A stretch of 42,240 bases of DNA from a virus, in the UHGV virus genome UHGV-0128348. One strand, given 5' to 3'. A program made the translations under genes and the position numbers. Below the pieces are notes generated by a model that was not told where the DNA came from, did not search any database, and was given only the letters and a program-made list of their open reading frames with translations. Positions 15,013 to 41,048 of the stretch are shown in pieces; position 1 is the first letter of the stretch; every line of letters begins with the position of its first letter.

Positions 15013-16302
15013 TTACAACTCTCGGTAAGCTGGTTGCAAAGCTTCACACCATTGTCTTAAAGTCGAAGCTCTTCGTTTCTTAGTTTTATCGCTAAGCGAT
15101 AAGCACATATCAAACAAAAAAGGCTCCGCCGTTGTGGGATCTAGCTCTGAAAGATTTTTTGCCTGGCTCCATTGTATCCAAGCCCAACCACAATGACTGG
15201 CCTCAAAACCACGAGCCGCAATTCTTAATCTCTTTTCATGATCAGATTCAGCTAATTGTTGTCCCATTGCAGAGATTGAACCATTTTCATTAAGTAAACC
15301 TAGTATTTTACCTGCGTGTATATAGTACAGTATATGGCGAGTATCCAACCCTGTACTAATTAGATCGAGATATATCCCCTTCCATTTTAACTCTACAACT
15401 TTAAAAACTTGATCAATTAAATTTGCTTGGGGCACCTGATAACCGCCAACAACCTGGGCAGACATCTTAGCCAAAGCTGTTGAGTAAAACTCAGCATCCG
15501 TTTTTCGAACCGTTAATACAATCTCATCTGTATAGTTATTTTTCAATTCAAAACTTGAACTTGTATTAACAACAGAGTCAAATAAAGCCGAAAGCATTTG
15601 AACATCAATCTTATTATTTTTAATAAAACTAACTATATCACCCTTAAGACGAATCAGATCATTTAGCTCTTTTAATAACGGCTCTACTGTCTGCATTTTC
15701 TCTGCCTGAAAAGAAAGCACAAAAGATCCAGGGCGACCCGCCACTGGTCGCATCAAGTCCTTTTCATCAAAAGAGTTAATTATAGATGAATATAAGTTAT
15801 TGAAACATTCGAATAATTTAGAAACACCACTTAGTACTAATGGGTCCGTAGATGACTTAGTTTTCTCCACATGTATTTCATGCGTTGAAAACTCAATTGC
15901 CTTGCCTATTTTACCATTAGCTAAAACAGGCAGTACAGAGCTTATAAACAATCCACTTTGTGGCAAAGTCATGTTGTTAGATACTTCAGACGAATCTAAA
16001 GCCAATGCTACAACACGCTCATCCTCATAAAAAATATCTAACTGATAGTATTTCTTTTGTTCTTGGTGCATTAGAACGCTACGAATATCTATTCTTTTTC
16101 TTTCCAAAGATTCTAAGCGTTCAGCAGATATAGGAATGATGATCCACTTTTCGAAGTCATCAAAGTCCCCTAACCAATAAACAACAAAGAGACTATTTAT
16201 CTCATTAGTCACTGAGAAAAATTTTGGACCTTCGAAAAACTCATAGACATTTTCGTATTTTAGTTCACCAAACACGCTGTCTTTAAGGAAGATGTTACTC
16301 AT
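15013..16302 (-). CDS. hypothetical protein, 429 aa, second gene of AT-rich two-gene cassette
   Basis: Long ORF with low GC; 4-nt overlap with upstream gene; no Walker A or other motif I recognise. Confidence 0.65.
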   Translation of the reverse strand: MSNIFLKDSVFGELKYENVYEFFEGPKFFSVTNEINSLFVVYWLGDFDDFEKWIIIPISAERLESLERKRIDIRSVLMHQEQKKYYQLDIFYEDERVVALALDSSEVSNNMTLPQSGLFISSVLPVLANGKIGKAIEFSTHEIHVEKTKSSTDPLVLSGVSKLFECFNNLYSSIINSFDEKDLMRPVAGRPGSFVLSFQAEKMQTVEPLLKELNDLIRLKGDIVSFIKNNKIDVQMLSALFDSVVNTSSSFELKNNYTDEIVLTVRKTDAEFYSTALAKMSAQVVGGYQVPQANLIDQVFKVVELKWKGIYLDLISTGLDTRHILYYIHAGKILGLLNENGSISAMGQQLAESDHEKRLRIAARGFEASHCGWAWIQWSQAKNLSELDPTTAEPFLFDMCLSLSDKTKKRRASTLRQWCEALQPAYREL

Positions 16303-16745
16303 TTATCCAACCTCCTTATACAAACGAATTTGGCATGAACCTGAGATTCGTTGTAAAGCCATATTGTGTAGTGAGTTGAATCAGGAGCTCCAGTTTTTAG
16401 AATAACACCGTCATTAGCTGCAAACTCACCCTGAGCAACAAATCGCTCTCCAATACCATCAGGAAACTTATTAAAGGCATTAATAATTGAATTTTCATCA
16501 GTATAAACTGATACGCCATAACAACATTTTAGCTTATGCCCTTTAAATTTTTTTAATCGTTTAGGATTTTCATCTTTCATATTCAAAAAGCACTGATCCC
16601 CTGGAGGATTTGCCTTTGTAAGACGAAAGAATACACCTGAAGCATCTTGCGCTTCCTTAGGTGGAGTGCCCGCAGGGAAGTCCGCGGGAAACGTTAACGA
16701 TTTTTTATTTTTTGTCGTTTGCTGTGAGATTTGAGTCATGTCCAT
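16299..16745 (-). CDS. hypothetical protein, 148 aa, first gene of AT-rich two-gene cassette
   Basis: ORF preceded by about 300 bp of very AT-rich sequence; no signal peptide; no recognisable domain. Confidence 0.6.
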   Translation of the reverse strand: MDMTQISQQTTKNKKSLTFPADFPAGTPPKEAQDASGVFFRLTKANPPGDQCFLNMKDENPKRLKKFKGHKLKCCYGVSVYTDENSIINAFNKFPDGIGERFVAQGEFAANDGVILKTGAPDSTHYTIWLYNESQVHAKFVCIRRLDK

Positions 16746-17058
16746 AATCCAAGACGATTAACAGAAAAACTGCCAATCACTTTGGTAAATCAGGACAATC
16801 CGTTGGCATTAGATGCAATATAGCAACAAGTAAACACTTCATAAATGCCATTTGGTTATATAAAGAATGACTTAACAACTCCATTTGTTATAAATGCTAT
16901 ATATTGATAGTTGAGCATATTTAGGCACTAAATATGTCCAATTACTGTTAATTGGCTATGTATATATTGAACCTATTCCCCGAGCTCCACATAAGTTCCG
17001 TTTCGTGGAGCCGATACCGACGGTTTTGCACCGGAAGAATCTTCGCGGGAGTATGTAG

Positions 17059-17131
17059 TGCTGGTTGACGGAACTGAACCGCCTACATCCTGCTTACAAG
17101 GCAGGCGCTCTCCCAACTGAGCTAACCCAGC
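17059..17131 (-). tRNA. tRNA-like gene, anticodon UGU (Thr), with non-canonical features
   Basis: Minus-strand cloverleaf: acceptor GCTGGGT, D-arm GCTCAGTTGGGAGAGC, anticodon stem CCTGC/GCAGG with loop CTTGTAA, T-arm GGCGG-TTCAGTT-CCGTC; G6-A67 mismatch; G at position 58; no encoded CCA. Confidence 0.5.
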
Positions 17132-18171
17132 AAATTACGCATTTCCATGACCGTTTGATCAAATCGCTCGGTTTCCAGTTCAACACCGATTCCACTCCGC
17201 CCGAGCAGAGCAGCTTGCTTTAGTGTGGAACCCGAACCAGCAAAGAAATCAGCTACGACATCCCCTGGCCAACTGCTTGCAGTAATGATCTGCTGAAGCA
17301 TATCGGCAGGTTTTTCGCATGGGTGCTTACCTGGATAAAACTGAACCGGCTTATGTGTCCAGACGTCGGTATATGGCACCGTGACCGACACGCTAAATGG
17401 GCGCCGTAACCGGTAATACTCCTGCTGAAGTTCAGAATACTTCCGGTTAAGTGATTGCCAGGTAGCGACAAGCTGGTGGTGAGGTTTTCCCAGTTCGTTG
17501 CGTGAGTGCTTATCCATGGCGATTTTTTGAAACAAAGCCTGCAACTTCAAATAATCGGCTTCATTCGGCAGTTGCCACTGGCTAAGGCCAAACCAGTGGG
17601 AAACCATATTTTTTTTACCCGTGGCTTCTGCAATCTGGGCCGACGTCACGCCAAGAGATTCCCGGGCATCCCGGAAGTAAGAAATTAAAGGCGTCATGAC
17701 GTGTTGCTTTAACTCATTACACTTTGCGGCATATCCATCGTCTTTGGGCCTGTATGGCCCCTGATAATGGTCGGCAAAAATGATACGCTCAGTTGCGGGG
17801 AAATAAGCGCGTAAGCTCTCCTTATTGCAGCCGTTCCATCGCCCTGATGGCTTAGCCCAGATGATATGGTTGAGCAAGTTAAACCGCTCTCTCACCAACA
17901 GCTCAATATCCGCTGCCAGGCGTTGCCCACAGAAGAGATACATGCTGCCGGCAGGTTTTAACACTCGCCAGAACTGTGCCAGACAGCTATCCAGCCAACG
18001 TAAATAGTCCTCGTCCCCCTTCCATTGGTTATCCCAGCCGTTTGGCTTCACCTTAAAATAAGGCGGATCGGTAACAATAAGATCAATGGAGTTATCGGGT
18101 ATCGATGGGAGGTATTGCAGGCAATCAGCATTGATTAATTCAATACTGGATATTTTTACAGTATTTTTCAT
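17122..18171 (-). CDS. DNA N6-adenine methyltransferase (DPPY motif, Dam-like phage methylase)
   Basis: 349-aa ORF with N-terminal ...LIVTDPPYF... and C-terminal ...FFAGSGSTL... AdoMet motif; last 10 nt overlap the tRNA-like gene. Confidence 0.8.
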   Translation of the reverse strand: MKNTVKISSIELINADCLQYLPSIPDNSIDLIVTDPPYFKVKPNGWDNQWKGDEDYLRWLDSCLAQFWRVLKPAGSMYLFCGQRLAADIELLVRERFNLLNHIIWAKPSGRWNGCNKESLRAYFPATERIIFADHYQGPYRPKDDGYAAKCNELKQHVMTPLISYFRDARESLGVTSAQIAEATGKKNMVSHWFGLSQWQLPNEADYLKLQALFQKIAMDKHSRNELGKPHHQLVATWQSLNRKYSELQQEYYRLRRPFSVSVTVPYTDVWTHKPVQFYPGKHPCEKPADMLQQIITASSWPGDVVADFFAGSGSTLKQAALLGRSGIGVELETERFDQTVMEMRNLLG

Positions 18172-22085: not shown

Positions 22086-22484
22086 TCAACCCACAGCTGT
22101 ACATGTATCCACCACTTTTTGATAGCAGACTATGGTGATTTCTACCCTACCTCCTTCGACGATTTCACCCCATTCAATAGCCATACGCTTAACCTGGTTG
22201 TCGTCCTCCCAGATACCGGCATAAGTCAAAGCATCAAGAAGTGCCTTGTTGTAATTGTCCAGGTCACGCCGGCGATAGTCTGGCGGATAGAGAATAATTT
22301 CTACAGCTGCTGGCGCGGTAGATGGTTTTGGTATTGCACGCAGTTGCTCAATGATCGCTGACCGTACTGCATGTTTGAATTTACGGCCGGCTGCGCTGAC
22401 AAGGTGTTTACCTTTTGAGGGCCCCTTGTTTGGGGACCGCCAGTAGGTGTTCACGCTGGGTGGGAATGGAAGAATAAATTTCAT
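22086..22484 (-). CDS. rusA: Holliday junction resolvase RusA
   Basis: 132-aa ORF MKFILPFPPSVNTYWR...DLDNYNKALLDALT... matching RusA hallmarks. Confidence 0.8.
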   Translation of the reverse strand: MKFILPFPPSVNTYWRSPNKGPSKGKHLVSAAGRKFKHAVRSAIIEQLRAIPKPSTAPAAVEIILYPPDYRRRDLDNYNKALLDALTYAGIWEDDNQVKRMAIEWGEIVEGGRVEITIVCYQKVVDTCTAVG

Positions 22485-22957
22485 TCAGCCTCCAGCACTA
22501 TCTTCAACTCAAACGGAACATCTCCTCCGCAATAGCAGAGCGGGCCAAGGTCAGACATAAGGCTCCACAGGGTCATTGACGTATAGCCATTTTCGTCTGT
22601 TACCGGGGGCGAAAAGTCCCCGAAGATCCTCGGGTGCTGGATTCGATTCTGCTCGTGTTGTTTTTCCAAATGTCTGAGGGAGACTTCATTAAGTTTCACT
22701 TTTACGATGCTGTTGAGATTGACCGATATTTCTCTGGCCAACAGCGAAGGGGTGATACTGATACCGCGAGAAACCCCGCGGGTAATCTTGATGGCCCCTT
22801 TTCTCTCCAGCGCCTTGAGGTGCGTTGCTGCTGCATTGGGGGACCGGCACCCCAGCATTCCGGTCAGTTCGTAAGTTGTAGGCGGAAAACCATGTTTACG
22901 CTGATATTCGATCAGGAGGTCCAGGACCTCCTGCTGCCTTAAGGTCAAGGAAGTCAT
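22481..22957 (-). CDS. LexA-like winged-helix DNA-binding protein with uncharacterised C-terminal domain
   Basis: ORF 22481..22984; likely ATG 22957 overlapping the C5-MTase stop (ATGA); ...LTLRQQEVLDLLIEYQRKHGFPPTTYELTGMLGCRSPNAAATHLKALERKGAIKI... resembles LexA N-terminal DBD. Confidence 0.55.
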   Translation of the reverse strand: MTSLTLRQQEVLDLLIEYQRKHGFPPTTYELTGMLGCRSPNAAATHLKALERKGAIKITRGVSRGISITPSLLAREISVNLNSIVKVKLNEVSLRHLEKQHEQNRIQHPRIFGDFSPPVTDENGYTSMTLWSLMSDLGPLCYCGGDVPFELKIVLEAE

Positions 22958-24936
22958 GCTGCCTGCTCCTCTCTGTTCACGCACATTTCGGGTAAGTTGG
23001 CGCGTACCAGCGCTTCGGCGAACGGCGGCGGGACGGCATTGCCACAGCGCGCGACCTGCTTATCTTTCGCGTATTTCACGCCGCGGTAATCCTGGTCAAT
23101 GATGTACCACTCCGGAAAGCCCTGCGCCCGGTAGAGCTCGTGCGGCTGCAGCATGCGCATGCCGATATCAACGATTCGGTAAGTCACCCCGCCAATTTCC
23201 ACCAGTCCGGTGCTATCCTTCCCGCAGTATTCCTGCAGGAACGCCAGCACCTGCTGCGCGCGCTCGTCGTCGTAGTCCTCGACCGCCAGGGTCGTTTTAA
23301 CCTCCCCCACGTGCTGGCCGCCAGCAGTGATAGTCGGCATCGGCTCGTCAGTAGTCTGGCCGTCACGGCAAGTACCGCGCAGTTTAACCAGATGAGAAGC
23401 GACTAATGCGTGGTGATCGACAGTCGTTACTGAATGCGCTGGCTCATCCAGCCCCACGCCGGCGCCCTGATAATTCCCACCGTAGTGTTTTGCCAGGAAC
23501 GCACCAACTACGGCATGTTTCCCACCACCAGCCACAACAGTTCCTAGCGGCTTATCCAGTCCTGGCACGCGAGGAGCCTGGCCGGGCCGTTCTCCGTATC
23601 CCATTTGAATGAGCGTCGGCACAACCAGCTGCGATTTACCGCCGCCGCCCGCGGTGATTGTTGCGCTTGGTTCATCGGCACGGTGTCCGACGCTGGCGCC
23701 AAACTGACGAGCGATGACCGGCGCAACAACACAAGCTCGTGACTCTTTCAGGATGGTGTGAGCGGGTTTATCGAGCGGGCGTGGTTTAGCCTGGTACTCG
23801 CTGCCGCCATTGCCAGCCAGGAACGGAGCCAGCTCTGCTTCAACAATACCCATAGCGTGACCATTCCCGCCCGGGCGTTTTGCGGTACCGGCCGTCACCG
23901 TCGGCAACGGATCGGTGACTTCCTGCCCGGTAGCTCCGGTTCGGAATTTTGTCAGATGAGGTACCGCAATTGCGTAGCCGTGGGTTTTCGTAATCGTCTG
24001 TAGCGGATCGTCCAGCGCCTGTCCCCGGAAACAGTCATATTTGCCACGTGTCGTTGTGTGATTGCACTTCACGATGAATGGCGAAGCACTTTCGATAACA
24101 AAGCGCTGAATGCCGCGGGCAATCCGTTTTAGCGTATTCTCTGCCAGTGACTTTTTGCGACCGAAGATGCTCGGCGCGGGGATTGACCAGTCTATGCATT
24201 CCGCAGCTGTACGCCACGGCTCAAGCTGGCCCGCCAGCACGGCGGCAGACTTCGGATCCCCGTGCGTGGCTTCCGGCCAGACTATCGGTTTCCCGTCCCG
24301 GCGCATCACCATGAAGAACCGCTTACGGATGGTCGGCGCGCCATAATCGCAGGCGCGCAGCTCGCGAAAATCGACGACATAACCCAGCCCGGCAATTAAG
24401 CGCTTGGCCTGCTCGCTATCCGGTGAAAACTCCAGAAACTCGCAACACTCCACCAGTGCAGGATGATCTGCTGGAATACCGGTGGTAAGCATCCCGACAA
24501 ATGCATTGAAAGTTTCACCGATGCGTGCCGGATCCGGTCGCATTTCTGCCGCGAGTAACGGACCCCACGTCTTAAACTCTTCGACGTTTTCCAGCATCAT
24601 GACTCGCGGGCCAACATCCAGCGCCCAACGAATGACGATCCATGCCAGCCCTCGAATATCTTTCTCTACTGGTTTAGCACCTTTCGCTTTAGAAAAGTGA
24701 CGACAGTCAGGCGAGAACCATGCCAGGCCGACAGGCTTACCACTGGTAGCGGCTAATGGGGATACATCAAACACACTTTCGCAATAGTGAAGCGTGTCGG
24801 GATGGTTAGTGCGGTGCATAGCAACGGCGTTAACATCGTGGTTAATCGCGATATCAACGCTACGCCCTATCGCCAGCTCAATACCTGTACTGGCGCCACC
24901 GCCACCAGCAAAATTATCGACAATAATCTCACGCAT
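22954..24936 (-). CDS. DNA (cytosine-5)-methyltransferase with long repeat-containing variable region
   Basis: 660-aa ORF; motif I FAGGGG, PC-type FSPDCRHFS, ENV (MLENVEEF), motif X RCGNAV; seven D(E/K)P..T(I/V)TAGG-like repeats between them. Confidence 0.8.
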   Translation of the reverse strand: MREIIVDNFAGGGGASTGIELAIGRSVDIAINHDVNAVAMHRTNHPDTLHYCESVFDVSPLAATSGKPVGLAWFSPDCRHFSKAKGAKPVEKDIRGLAWIVIRWALDVGPRVMMLENVEEFKTWGPLLAAEMRPDPARIGETFNAFVGMLTTGIPADHPALVECCEFLEFSPDSEQAKRLIAGLGYVVDFRELRACDYGAPTIRKRFFMVMRRDGKPIVWPEATHGDPKSAAVLAGQLEPWRTAAECIDWSIPAPSIFGRKKSLAENTLKRIARGIQRFVIESASPFIVKCNHTTTRGKYDCFRGQALDDPLQTITKTHGYAIAVPHLTKFRTGATGQEVTDPLPTVTAGTAKRPGGNGHAMGIVEAELAPFLAGNGGSEYQAKPRPLDKPAHTILKESRACVVAPVIARQFGASVGHRADEPSATITAGGGGKSQLVVPTLIQMGYGERPGQAPRVPGLDKPLGTVVAGGGKHAVVGAFLAKHYGGNYQGAGVGLDEPAHSVTTVDHHALVASHLVKLRGTCRDGQTTDEPMPTITAGGQHVGEVKTTLAVEDYDDERAQQVLAFLQEYCGKDSTGLVEIGGVTYRIVDIGMRMLQPHELYRAQGFPEWYIIDQDYRGVKYAKDKQVARCGNAVPPPFAEALVRANLPEMCVNREEQAA

Positions 24937-25882
24937 GAGCGGTCCCCCTCATGCTGCCGACCAGCCCACCAGCAACGGTGATGATTTCGCTGGTGGGCAC
25001 GCGCTCCAGCCACAACTGGTTAATGTGGGCCTTCAGCTTGTTCTGCTGGGAGAACTCCAGATCCTCTGCGCCTTGTACCTGTCCAAAGACGAGTCCAACT
25101 TCCAGTGGCCAGATCCGGGATTCAGGCTCAGCCAATGATGCAACAGCATCGGGGATGATCACTTCAGGAGACTGAACTGGCGAAACTGGTGACAGGAATT
25201 TTCCTGCAGCAAACTCAGCCAGCGCCATACTTGCGCGCCCTTTTGCTTCCAGCTCAACGCGATCGATATAGCTAAAATGTTCACCGCGCCAGGTCTTATC
25301 AAATACCGCAATGGCCCCGGCAAAGAATGCGCTGGTGGGCTTCTGCTTTTCGTCGGCCGGCACAAACCACGTTGGGAGATCGAATCCAATACGACCACGA
25401 ATAAACATGATGTGATCGGCATATTCCGGCCACCATGTTTCACTTGTTGCTGACTTCACGAGGTAAATGTAACGACCACCCTTTTCACGCTGCTCGGCGG
25501 TATAGTTCATAATATGAGTCATGCCAGTGATGGCTTGTTTTTCATGGTACTGCGAACGGCTGTACGGCGGATTAGCAAAGGCCGCTCCTCCGAGTTCTAC
25601 CAAACGACCAGACCAGTCCTGCGTCAGCGCATTATCTTCAGCGGTATACCATGCCGGACATTTTGTATTGCTGTCGTCTGCAAACAGGTCCAGTACCAGC
25701 GGGCCAAACATAGCGTTAACGCCCCAGAACAGCAGATCAGGGGTACGCCATTGATCCCCGACTTCTTTTAAATAATGCGCACTACGCTGGCGCTGTTCCT
25801 CAAGTGCCAGGCAATAAGGGCTGACGGTTTTAGTTAAAGTTTGCTCTTCTGCGGTCATAGCTTCTTGTACTTCCTGACTCAT
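24929..25882 (-). CDS. phage N6-adenine DNA methyltransferase (NPPY motif)
   Basis: 317-aa ORF with ...AFANPPYS... motif; overlaps C5-MTase start by 8 nt. Confidence 0.65.
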   Translation of the reverse strand: MSQEVQEAMTAEEQTLTKTVSPYCLALEEQRQRSAHYLKEVGDQWRTPDLLFWGVNAMFGPLVLDLFADDSNTKCPAWYTAEDNALTQDWSGRLVELGGAAFANPPYSRSQYHEKQAITGMTHIMNYTAEQREKGGRYIYLVKSATSETWWPEYADHIMFIRGRIGFDLPTWFVPADEKQKPTSAFFAGAIAVFDKTWRGEHFSYIDRVELEAKGRASMALAEFAAGKFLSPVSPVQSPEVIIPDAVASLAEPESRIWPLEVGLVFGQVQGAEDLEFSQQNKLKAHINQLWLERVPTSEIITVAGGLVGSMRGTAHA

Positions 25883-36473: not shown

Positions 36474-36680
36474 ATGCTGAGCCTCGATTGTGTTCCCATC
36501 TCAACTTATTGCAAAGAGACAGGCGAAACCCCTGATGCCATAAATAAGCGCATCCAGCGCGGCGTATGGCGTGAAGGGGTACAGGTGCTAAAGGTCGAAG
36601 GCGTTAAGGAAAGATGGATAGATCTTAGTGAGGTTGCAAAATGGGCTCGACAAAATCGCCTAAACTCCCGCGCGGCGTAA
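36474..36680 (+). CDS. xis: excisionase
   Basis: Small basic ORF directly upstream of and overlapping integrase; start at second ATG with GGAG RBS. Confidence 0.55.
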   Translation: MLSLDCVPISTYCKETGETPDAINKRIQRGVWREGVQVLKVEGVKERWIDLSEVAKWARQNRLNSRAA

Positions 36681-37831
36681 CGATCAGGAAACATAGTACT
36701 GGGGAAACTATCAATATTACCTTTACCTATAAGGGGGTGAAATGCCGGGAACCTTTATCAAACCTTGAAATTAATAGCAAAAACATTAAATACGCCGAGC
36801 GAACACTCGGCGAAATTCACAATAAAATTGAGCGGGGTACATTCAATTATGGTGAACACTTTCCCCGTTCGGCACGACTTAAAATATTTGGTAATTCTTC
36901 AACAGGAAAAACGGTAAAAAATTATCTCGATGAATATCTTGTAATTTGTGAAACGAGAAAATTATCTCCCTCAACAATCGGCGGATATAAGAAATGTTTA
37001 AATGCTCTGGCATCACTTCACGTTTTTCCTGCCAGCGAATTAACACCTGCTGCTTTAAAAACATGGATCCAGAGTCAGAAAACGACATTAAAGACGATTA
37101 GGAACCAACTTTCATTCCTACGCTCAGCACTGGATGAAGCTGTGACTGATGGTGTATTGCAGATTAACCCTGTTTCACTGGTGACAGCCTCGCGCTACCA
37201 GAGTAGTAAAACCGAGGATGAAAGTGATTATATTGTTGATCCGCTTTCGCCAGCCGAGGTTGAAGCGCTTTTGCATGCCGCAGGTAACAAGCAGTGGGAA
37301 AACATATTCCGCTTTGCAATTGAAACCGGGCTACGTAGTTCTGAACTCTGCGCCCTCCGTTGGCGCGATATCGACTTTATCGGCAAAACAGCGCATGTGC
37401 AAAATGCCAGCGTAGTGGGGGTAATTAAGGGCACGAAAACTAAAGCTGGAACACGTAAAGTTGAGTTAACCGAAGAAGCCTTGTATGCCCTGACTTCTCA
37501 GAAGCCTTTCACCTTTATGAAAGATGCAACGATCTTTGAGGATCCTAAGACAGAAAAACCATGGGCGGGTGCCGATGCGATAAGAAAGAAAGCCTGGGTG
37601 CCAACTTTACGTAAAGCTGGGATCAGGTACCGTAATCCATACCAGACCAGGCATACGTTCGCGACCCGACATATAAGTCGTGGCGCTAACCTGTTCTGGC
37701 TGGCATCACAGATGGGACATAAAGGGCCAGAAATGTTGTTCAGGCATTATGGACGCTATCTGAAGGAGTATGACGGCAACACTGAAAAACGACCCAAGCT
37801 GGTCAGCGGTGGAACCTCAAAGGAGCCGTAA
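36641..37831 (+). CDS. int: tyrosine integrase (lambda Int family)
   Basis: 396-aa ORF with C-terminal catalytic region ...RHTFATRHISRGANLFWLASQMGHKGPEMLFRHYGRY...; adjacent att core. Confidence 0.85.
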   Translation: MGSTKSPKLPRGVTIRKHSTGETINITFTYKGVKCREPLSNLEINSKNIKYAERTLGEIHNKIERGTFNYGEHFPRSARLKIFGNSSTGKTVKNYLDEYLVICETRKLSPSTIGGYKKCLNALASLHVFPASELTPAALKTWIQSQKTTLKTIRNQLSFLRSALDEAVTDGVLQINPVSLVTASRYQSSKTEDESDYIVDPLSPAEVEALLHAAGNKQWENIFRFAIETGLRSSELCALRWRDIDFIGKTAHVQNASVVGVIKGTKTKAGTRKVELTEEALYALTSQKPFTFMKDATIFEDPKTEKPWAGADAIRKKAWVPTLRKAGIRYRNPYQTRHTFATRHISRGANLFWLASQMGHKGPEMLFRHYGRYLKEYDGNTEKRPKLVSGGTSKEP

Positions 37832-40256: not shown

Positions 40257-41048
40257 ATGATAGATGAGAGCGCAAAAACGATAGCCGAAAAGCTCGCTGT
40301 TCCGGTTTATGAAGATGCCCTGAGCCCTTTTGCTAAAGAATTATCAAAGGGGTTAGTCTCTATTGCCAGAATGGTAAATTCGGGAATATTCCTAGTTGAA
40401 GACAGTGTGCATGCGGTGACAAGCGTCTTACGGATGACAGCTGAGAATCTGGCATTATTACCACCCAAGCAAATTTCATTCGATCGGCCAAGGGTTGCTC
40501 TTCAGGCTCTAAATGAGGCCAAATTTGCAATAAATGAAGATGAAATACAGCGCCTTTTTTCAAATCTAATATCGGCAAGCCTAGACAAGAAAACTTCGGG
40601 GATTGCTCATCCAGCGTACATCGAAATAATCAAACAGCTCCAGCCGGATGAAGCCAGGATCCTTCGGTTTATGTTTAATAAAGAAAAGAATAGAAAAGGT
40701 CATGCACCCACAATTGATATTGTCCAACAAGATTCAAAGGATAGTAACTTCAGAACCACATCAACTACACCGGAAGTAAACCTAATTTGTGAAGATGCTG
40801 GTTGCGATATCCCCGAAAACTCATTTATGTATTTCTCCAACTTAAAACGATTGGGCCTGCTAACTACAACATCAGGAACTTCTTTCCCAAAGGAAGAGCA
40901 TGAAAGAATTTTCTCATCAGAGAAGGTAAAAGAAATATGCAGTGTAAATTCGCATCTAGATAGAGTTTCTTATAAAAGCGGGCAATATAGTTTTACAGGT
41001 TTTGGTCAAGGCTTTGTAGATTCGTGTATCGGCAGACATAGTATTTAA
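40257..41048 (+). CDS. AT-rich hypothetical protein, possibly Abi-alpha-like
   Basis: 263-aa low-GC ORF beside an integrase; N-terminal ...AEKLAVPVYEDALSPFAKELSKG... recalls Abi_alpha/DUF4393 (memory only). Confidence 0.4.
   Translation: MIDESAKTIAEKLAVPVYEDALSPFAKELSKGLVSIARMVNSGIFLVEDSVHAVTSVLRMTAENLALLPPKQISFDRPRVALQALNEAKFAINEDEIQRLFSNLISASLDKKTSGIAHPAYIEIIKQLQPDEARILRFMFNKEKNRKGHAPTIDIVQQDSKDSNFRTTSTTPEVNLICEDAGCDIPENSFMYFSNLKRLGLLTTTSGTSFPKEEHERIFSSEKVKEICSVNSHLDRVSYKSGQYSFTGFGQGFVDSCIGRHSI

Follow-up and report, generated by a model that had tools for sequence, protein, structure and literature searches.

An orphan C5 cytosine methyltransferase of a Klebsiella temperate phage carries a seven-unit array of possible alternative TL-motif recognition modules

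The stretch of DNA analyzed in this work, hereafter called the window, is the whole of the virus genome UHGV-0128348 (42,240 nucleotides, nt), a lambdoid temperate phage or prophage of Klebsiella. The gene of interest lies at 22954..24936 (-), with its stop codon at 22954-22956, and encodes an orphan phage C5 DNA methyltransferase (MTase) of 660 amino acids (aa), referred to below as the C5 protein; it is 95% identical to the gene of phage Kp4866-6. Unless a plus sign is given, all window coordinates refer to the minus strand. This open reading frame (ORF) had been taken for a C5 MTase in the first-pass annotation, and the assignment was borne out: the ORF list contains it as stated, and the Pfam model PF00145 (C-5 cytosine DNA methylase) matched the protein in three stretches (E=3e-19, 70.1 bits vs. 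a cut-off of 22). The narrower NCBIfam model TIGR00675 'dcm' remained below its threshold (46.7 vs. a cut-off of 100.65). In a search of the PDB sequences the closest solved relative was 3g7u, the putative DNA modification methyltransferase of prophage CP-933R (E=6e-9), and DNMT1 and MET1 were also matched, at motifs IX and X. The full-length protein was additionally modelled with AlphaFold2 in two runs, one using an alignment of 121 sequences and the other an alignment of 38 sequences restricted to collinear homologues. In both runs the catalytic domain was predicted with a local distance difference test score (pLDDT) above 90, and a Foldseek search with the model retrieved DNMT1, 3g7u, M.HhaI and M.HaeIII (E-values of 1e-7 to 1e-9, probability 1.00). 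The C5 protein is thus a temperate-phage C5 cytosine methyltransferase.

The motifs of C5 MTases occur in the canonical order, with motif I at F9-AGGGG14, motif VI at E116-N-V118, motif VIII at R204-K-R206, motif IX at R594-ML...QGFP and motif X at G632-NAVPP. The catalytic part of the large domain, which contains motifs I, IV, VI and VIII, comprises aa 1-214 (24295..24936) and was delimited by the alignment with 3g7u, by invariant family columns and by a pLDDT that is mostly above 90. It is followed by a conserved segment of the variable region that precedes the repeats (aa 215-304, 24025..24294; pLDDT 50-95), in which W220-P, T224-H-G, W250-S, R271-I and P286-F-I-V form near-invariant columns. 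The C-terminal part with motif IX (R594-MLQPHELYRAQGFP) and motif X (G632-NAVPP) spans aa 593-660 (22957..23160), as judged from the 3g7u alignment, the family columns and a pLDDT of 81-96. The catalytic core is ordinary, and it is the insert of the small domain that is unusual. In motif IV, which reads S75-P76-D77-C78 (24703-24714), an Asp precedes the presumed catalytic Cys, and the canonical Pro-Cys dipeptide is absent; Cys78 is aligned to the catalytic Cys of 3g7u (S-P-D-C vs. G-P-P-C), and all four residues are invariant among 121 family members. Several long relatives of 930-1110 aa (P0137, P0173, P0174, P0228, P0264, P0251, P0178 and P0254) contain a Hint/intein insertion at about aa 78-98, that is, at or next to the catalytic cysteine of motif IV, and several of these also carry a LAGLIDADG homing endonuclease domain.

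Between the conserved pre-array segment and motif IX, a short motif is repeated seven times. The seven peptides quoted in the first-pass annotation were all found, between aa 309 and 536, vs. a chance expectation of 0.02-0.05 copies, and only the size given there for the region (roughly 330 aa) needed correction, as the gap from motif VIII (R204-K-R206) to motif IX (R594-M-L) is about 390 aa and the array itself is 258 aa. The D/T-x-P starts of the seven copies are at aa 309, 341, 389, 421, 461, 497 and 530, with spacings of 32, 48, 32, 40, 36 and 33 aa. The pattern [DT].P..[ST][IVL][TVL] occurs seven times in the C5 protein vs. 0.02 occurrences expected, and at most two were obtained in 20,000 shuffles of the protein. 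The likeness extends beyond the short motif over a unit of about 36 aa with the consensus GQSVDEPLPTVTAGGDHHALVAAFLVKYYGGERDGQ, in which a Gly/Pro-rich lead-in is followed by D-x-P-x-x-T-[IV]-T, a Gly-rich loop and a hydrophobic strand. A hidden Markov model (HMM) of this unit gave seven matches of 32-48 aa that tile aa 305-562, with pairwise identities of 20-47% among the units of the C5 protein, and the segments between the units are rich in Gly and Pro and linker-like.

The first three units were delimited by the motif pattern together with the unit HMM: unit 1 (aa 305-336, 23929..24024; motif core DDPLQTIT), unit 2 (aa 337-384, 23785..23928; TDPLPTVT), which has a long Gly-rich loop, and unit 3 (aa 385-416, 23689..23784; DKPAHTIL). 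Units 4, 5 and 7 were delimited by the unit HMM and by the clustering of unit types described below. Unit 4 (aa 417-456, 23569..23688; core DEPSATITAGGGG) belongs to type 'F', which usually lies directly before type 'C', and unit 5 (aa 457-492, 23461..23568; core DKPLGTVVAGGG) is of type 'C' and is 81-90% identical to units of proteins whose overall identity is only about 50-60%. Unit 6 (aa 493-525, 23362..23460; core DEPAHSVTTVDHH), defined by the unit HMM and an alignment of relatives, is directly followed by an extra unit in most close relatives. Unit 7 (aa 526-562, 23251..23361; core DEPMPTITAGGQH) is the counterpart of the penultimate, 'B'-type unit of the family. Behind it, at aa 563-592 (23161..23250), a comparison of the window sequence with the family consensus identified a degenerate remnant of the last ('A') unit of the family, AFLQEYCGKDSTGLVEI, in which the P..T core has been lost. 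This remnant overlaps with a helix predicted by AlphaFold2 (aa 557-571) and is degenerate across the Klebsiella clade. The canonical type 'A' unit (DEPLHTVTTKDRFGLVTV) lies directly before motif IX, whereas in the window enzyme the nearest intact copy of the motif is 59 aa before motif IX. Because this last unit is degenerate here, the protein contains outside the array neither another copy of the motif nor a segment resembling a target-recognition domain (TRD). Searches of the gene for direct and tandem DNA repeats detected none, and the units, or the duplications that gave rise to them, are therefore old and diverged. A recent duplication, slippage and phase variation were rejected for the same reason.

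The repeated motif was compared with the TL motif of C5 MTase TRDs, for which the consensus (YFW)X(RK)X5P(STCA)PT(ILV)(TASV)X5-16H(PFYWL) has been published (Vilkaitis et al. 2000, quoted in PMC2413257). The base-reading loops are arranged around it as NNN-x10-TL-x3-CCC (N-TL and C-TL), and Trautner delimited the TRDs of multispecific enzymes by means of this motif (PMC2413257). Five of the seven units fit P..T[ILV][TASV], and all seven fit P..[ST][ILV]. At the level of this relaxed core, the sequence comparison supports the identification of the repeated motif as the TL motif of TRDs as defined in PMC2413257. The C-TL trimers of units 1-7 are HGY, TAK, SRA, GGG, GGK, DHH and GQH; as none of them was close enough to the few published diagnostic trimers, no specificity could be predicted from the N-TL and C-TL trimers.

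The selective constraint on the array was estimated as the ratio of nonsynonymous to synonymous substitution rates (dN/dS) against three phage homologues, with dS of about 0.8-2. The ratio was 0.05-0.07 for the array, 0.06-0.07 for the N-terminal catalytic region, 0.065 for the pre-array segment and 0.07-0.11 for the C-terminal region. Where dS was measurable, individual units gave values of 0.02-0.14 (0.056 for unit 1, 0.107 for unit 2, 0.024 for unit 3 and 0.074 for unit 7); in unit 4 dS was saturated, at an amino acid identity of 0.95. The least constrained part was the remnant at aa 563-592 (0.25). The array is therefore under purifying selection as strong as that on the catalytic core, with no sign of a decayed pseudo-module.

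A comparison of 121 cluster representatives with at least 84% identity to the C5 protein revealed differences that involve whole units. In the slot between window units 6 and 7, a 36-aa cassette containing GRAGQSRPRDVSEPLQTMTTKADAA is found in about 105 representatives and an unrelated 33-aa cassette containing NNTGHPGGSVESPAHTVTTGNHHAVV in 8; the slot is empty in 5 representatives, the window included, and one of the empty-slot clusters comprises 1123 member sequences. Proteins with the 36-aa cassette, such as P0002, have 695 aa, and those with the 33-aa cassette, such as P0008, have 692 aa. In another relative (P0108, 653 aa), an in-register deletion covers parts of units 4 and 5. According to these alignments the units behave as cassettes, which closely similar proteins may have, lack or exchange for others; this demonstrates modular evolution, functional autonomy being a separate matter.

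The family to which the C5 protein belongs is very large: 8380 representatives of clusters at 50% identity were related to it at E<1e-3 and 2572 at E<1e-30. Close relatives, with identities of 84-98%, come from Klebsiella and Raoultella and in some cases from E. coli and are annotated as 'DNA cytosine methyltransferase'; distant ones occur in Planctomycetes, alpha- and beta-proteobacteria and Sporomusaceae. Members were also found in 117 phage records, among them phages of Pseudomonas (33), Vibrio (20), Aeromonas, Burkholderia and Rhizobium, Citrobacter phage phiNP and Pectobacterium phage ZF40. The unit HMM, applied to 268 diverse members, counted between 3 and 12 units in each, most often 7-8; the proteins reach a length of about 840 aa. 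Clustering of about 2000 units resulted in discrete types, which are conserved between distantly related proteins. Each window unit has counterparts of 60-90% identity even where the proteins as a whole share only about 50-60%. The P and T of the motif are nearly invariant in more than 2000 family units. The types are defined by the residue before the invariant T and by columns 13-19 after it, the most type-specific columns being 14-18; columns 15-17, inside this stretch, correspond to the published position of the C-TL trimer (PMC2413257), and at column 17 the within-type entropy is 0.66 vs. 2.98 overall.

In most members the array ends with types 'B' and 'A', in that order, and of 222 proteins with a type A unit, 218 have it in the last position; the array of the window enzyme reads h-x-.-F-C-X-t, without type A. 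Two units of the same type rarely occur in one protein: 32 such duplicates were observed vs. 223±10 expected for all types, and 26 vs. 102±8 when types A and B were left out, and with or without these two types none of 2000 shuffles reached the observed value. Free shuffling of modules as a general rule was rejected, as the order of types is mostly collinear. From this mostly fixed order it follows that the arrays change chiefly through units being gained, lost or replaced in register.

In both AlphaFold2 runs the array, at about aa 280-560 (to 586 in the second run), was predicted with a pLDDT below 50 and almost without secondary structure. Such persistently low confidence in a conserved array would weakly fit beads on a string that fold only in complex with the core and DNA. 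It is also mild evidence, from modelling, against a regular stacked repeat, a point at which repeat-register noise in the alignments may also contribute to the low scores.

The window enzyme was then compared with C5 MTases of known type. The enzymes M.SPRI, M.Phi3TI/M.SPBetaI, M.Rho11sI and M.H2I are, like it, orphan phage-borne C5 methylases, and multiple tandem TRDs give Bacillus phage C5 methylases multiple targets (PMC8936443; PMC12707154). When the methylases of SPbeta/phi3T, SPR, rho11s and H2 were aligned to each other, they were found to differ by whole modules of 35-55 aa, which lie in a fixed order between motifs VIII and IX and consist of one TL-type motif each (GIATTLTS, SPTLTTMGGG, SPT(L/I)TTNKGEG or VSHTLSAS) followed by a Gly-rich stretch. 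Directly before motif IX they carry an invariant TL-bearing element, GEPAFTVNTIDRHGVAI, which resembles the type A unit of the window family. The likeness is architectural and concerns the layout and the length scale of an array with one TL motif per module. There are also differences: the Bacillus enzymes are 439-503 aa long and have 2-4 TL-bearing variable modules (3-5 with the invariant element), whereas the window enzyme has seven and its family 3-12; their modules share little beyond the TL core, whereas the units of the window family are recognizably homologous to each other; their motif IV contains PC instead of SPDC; and the hosts of the window family are Gram-negative and other phyla. 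To our knowledge, the record of multispecific cytosine methylases is confined almost entirely to a small number of Bacillus phages, whose enzymes have from two to a few recognition domains. A shared module of these enzymes, at alignment columns ~370-380, reads SPTLTTMGEGH in rho11s (locus L005) and SPTLTTMGGGH in H2 (L006) and phi3T/SPbeta (L003). The rho11s methylase carries an inactive 'pseudo' TRD, with which this one Gly-to-Glu substitution in the C-TL loop would be consistent.

The monospecific enzymes M.HhaI, M.HaeIII and M.BsaHI share with the window enzyme the catalytic fold, the order of motifs and the TL Thr with its hydrophobic neighbour flanked by N-TL and C-TL loops (PMC2413257), but their single TL motif lies 10-50 aa before motif IX. 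Applied to M.HhaI, for which a provisional query sequence was used, the unit HMM returned nothing useful. The solved structure 3g7u is, like the window enzyme, a prophage-encoded enterobacterial C5 MTase, and motifs I, IV, VI, VIII, IX and X are common to both; it differs in its length of 376 aa, its short variable region and the lack of any match to the unit profile.

The C5 gene is in an early (replication/nin-like) operon. Its upstream partner, at 24929..25882, encodes a Dam-type N6-adenine methyltransferase (PF05869, E=1e-42; TIGR01712, 187 bits vs. a cut-off of 97), and the TGA of this gene overlaps the ATG of the C5 gene (ATGCGTGA; overlap of 8 nt), so that the two genes are probably co-translated. 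Genes for a PerC-like activator and an O-like replication protein lie upstream of the Dam-type gene; those for a LexA-domain protein, RusA, KilA-N, DUF968/HNH and the Q antiterminator follow downstream of the C5 gene, and CI, CII and an integrase are encoded elsewhere in the window. No cognate restriction endonuclease was evident among the annotated neighbours of the C5 gene in the window. The DUF968/HNH protein is the product of a common lambdoid nin-region gene and is not obviously a restriction partner of the methylase. A third DNA methylase, of the N6_N4 type (PF01555), is encoded just downstream of the Q antiterminator gene (17122-18171), so that the phage encodes Dam-type N6A, C5 and N6_N4 enzymes; a tRNA-Thr(TGT) gene (17058-17131) adjoins the N6_N4 gene.

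All sampled contexts of family members were prophage-borne. Three distant members lie in prophage-like regions without a recognizable endonuclease partner; a second methylase is located nearby in two of these regions, and a Mom-like gene in one of the two. In the loci inspected, MT-A70, N6_N4 and N6A methylases were seen next to or near family members in prophage-like regions of Methylosinus (L012, 6378-8818 and 13174-13845) and Sporomusaceae (L011, 4333-5223 and 7001-8872) and in Citrobacter phage phiNP (L009, 2127-4728), respectively, the Methylosinus locus being the one with the Mom-like gene. The pairing of the family with a second modification enzyme thus appears to be recurrent.

Some further observations were made in the window. 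The first half of the protein family phrog_29443 (273 positions) resembles aa 1-155 of the C5 protein (24472-24936) and its second half aa 39-167 of the LexA-domain protein (22481-22984); judging from this match, a deletion may have fused the two genes in some phages and removed most of the methylase. A low-GC island at 15013-16745 (GC 0.36-0.37 vs. about 0.50 elsewhere) encodes a 429-aa DUF6575/DUF7226 protein and contains a 148-aa ORF without a Pfam match; it has the appearance of an acquired moron or defence cassette. The gene at 36641-37831 (+) encodes a tyrosine integrase with an Arm DNA-binding domain and is followed, in DNA with a GC content of 0.38-0.41, by that of an Abi_alpha abortive-infection protein at 40257-41048 (+); the prophage may end in this region, with a defence gene adjoining it.

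With moderate confidence, we propose that the array consists of seven alternative TL-motif modules and that the enzyme is an orphan anti-restriction C5 methylase, probably a multispecific one. From sequence comparison and by analogy with the Bacillus phage enzymes, we infer that the units may be separate TRDs with a target of their own each and that the phage would benefit by escaping restriction. In the mechanism that we envisage, the one target-recognition domain would be replaced by a chain of seven mini-modules of about 36 aa joined by Gly/Pro-rich linkers, each of which would contribute a TL-motif recognition loop, a type-specific Gly-rich loop and a hydrophobic strand. The modules would be alternative recognition elements that dock singly with one catalytic domain on DNA, several unrelated sequences would be methylated by a single polypeptide, and the DNA of progeny phage would be pre-protected against several host restriction systems, as in the case of the multispecific methylases of Bacillus phages. 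Multispecific cytosine methylases are a textbook anti-restriction device.

It is important to mention that a number of results weigh against this proposal. None of the seven units fits the strict TL core P[STCA]PT[ILV][TASV], and neither of the AlphaFold2 models showed docking of a unit onto the catalytic core. On the two TL regions of SPbeta MtbP the unit HMM scored 1.8 and -0.6 bits, an hhalign comparison of the units with the Bacillus TRD modules gave a probability of 0.9%, and in a family-vs-family profile alignment of the Bacillus and window enzymes only motifs IV-VIII could be aligned. With no detectable homology beyond the generic C5 core, the window enzyme lies outside the Bacillus multispecific lineage. 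The tandem target-recognition modules proposed in the first-pass annotation gain from the TL identity of the motif, the shared layout of one TL-type motif per module, the cassette behaviour and the strong constraint, but not from any sequence similarity to the Bacillus TRDs. A profile of 122 units found no solved C5 MTase among all PDB sequences, returning one chance match (E=2.8). The order of types is largely fixed, with only 7 of 108 co-occurring pairs found in both orders, and the adjacent pairs FC, SY and BA travel together, which is also compatible with a single ordered multi-unit domain. Moreover, 7-12 alternative TRDs per catalytic core would be more than we know of in any characterized multispecific enzyme. 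No published specificity, methylation data or repeat description was found for any family member in the searchable literature, with REBASE and most older papers out of reach. A bisulfite methylome paper on Klebsiella reports only CCWGG and MTCGAK in lysogens, which is uninformative if the prophage gene is silent.

The evidence can be read in other ways as well. The units could assemble into one composite DNA-binding or recognition domain, for instance stacked beta-hairpins acting as a platform or clamp, in which one TL motif reads the target, the others have a structural or DNA-positioning role, and one or very few sites are methylated. We consider this main rival reading rather unlikely. The mostly collinear order of types, the conserved terminal 'BA' units and the conserved adjacent 'FC' and 'SY' pairs would suit such a domain, purifying selection on all units would equally be expected of it, and the units have no detectable homology to proven TRD arrays. 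A regular stacked repeat, however, should have been modelled better than the array was, and one would not expect relatives of 84-98% identity to differ by the loss or insertion of whole units or by their exchange for unrelated cassettes, nor the copy number to vary from 3 to 12; the Gly/Pro-rich, linker-like character of the inter-unit segments and the coincidence of the most type-specific positions with the base-reading loop positions of monospecific enzymes point in the same direction.

Less probable still, to the point of being improbable, is an enzyme of relaxed or nearly absent specificity, in which the TL hairpins would be generic weak grips on DNA and very short or degenerate contexts would be methylated processively, as a cytosine counterpart of the M.EcoGII-like adenine methylases. 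It is an established strategy against restriction that phages carry orphan methylases which have highly degenerate sites and stay silent in lysogens (reviewed in PMC12707154), the window phage has three methylases, and many repeated DNA-contact loops could raise non-specific affinity; but generic grips would not be expected to show the depletion of same-type duplicates, and the discrete types, with loops conserved across distant proteins as seen at column 17, argue for specific readout. That the array is an inert flexible spacer or low-complexity linker, with a canonical TRD elsewhere in the protein, is hardly credible. AlphaFold2 does predict the array to be unstructured, and Gly, Ala and Pro are abundant in it, but the P and T are nearly invariant, the protein contains no other TL motif or TRD-like segment, and no measurable unit exceeds a dN/dS of 0.14; an inert linker was rejected because the dN/dS of the array is as low as that of the catalytic core.

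More tentatively than the proposal of alternative modules for the window enzyme itself, its relatives may form a very large prophage-borne family of "hyper-multispecific" C5 methyltransferases, in which each catalytic core would carry 3-12 interchangeable mini-TRDs with a target of their own each, and cassettes of about 36 aa would be acquired, dropped and swapped to track host restriction. The number of modules would then exceed that which we know for characterized enzymes, the lineage would be unrelated to that of the Bacillus phage enzymes, and the array would fold only on docking with the core and DNA.

If the family does act as the Bacillus enzymes do, the device would be widespread in temperate phages of Klebsiella, Pseudomonas, Vibrio, Aeromonas, rhizobia and other bacteria, with more modules per enzyme than in the Bacillus enzymes. 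The natural cassette variants would constitute a dictionary that relates modules of about 36 aa to DNA targets, useful both for the prediction of 5-methylcytosine (5mC) motifs from sequence and for methylase engineering. It would also change the reading of 5mC signals from induced prophages in methylome studies, and would help to explain phage host range and the barriers to plasmid and phage transfer in clinical Klebsiella.

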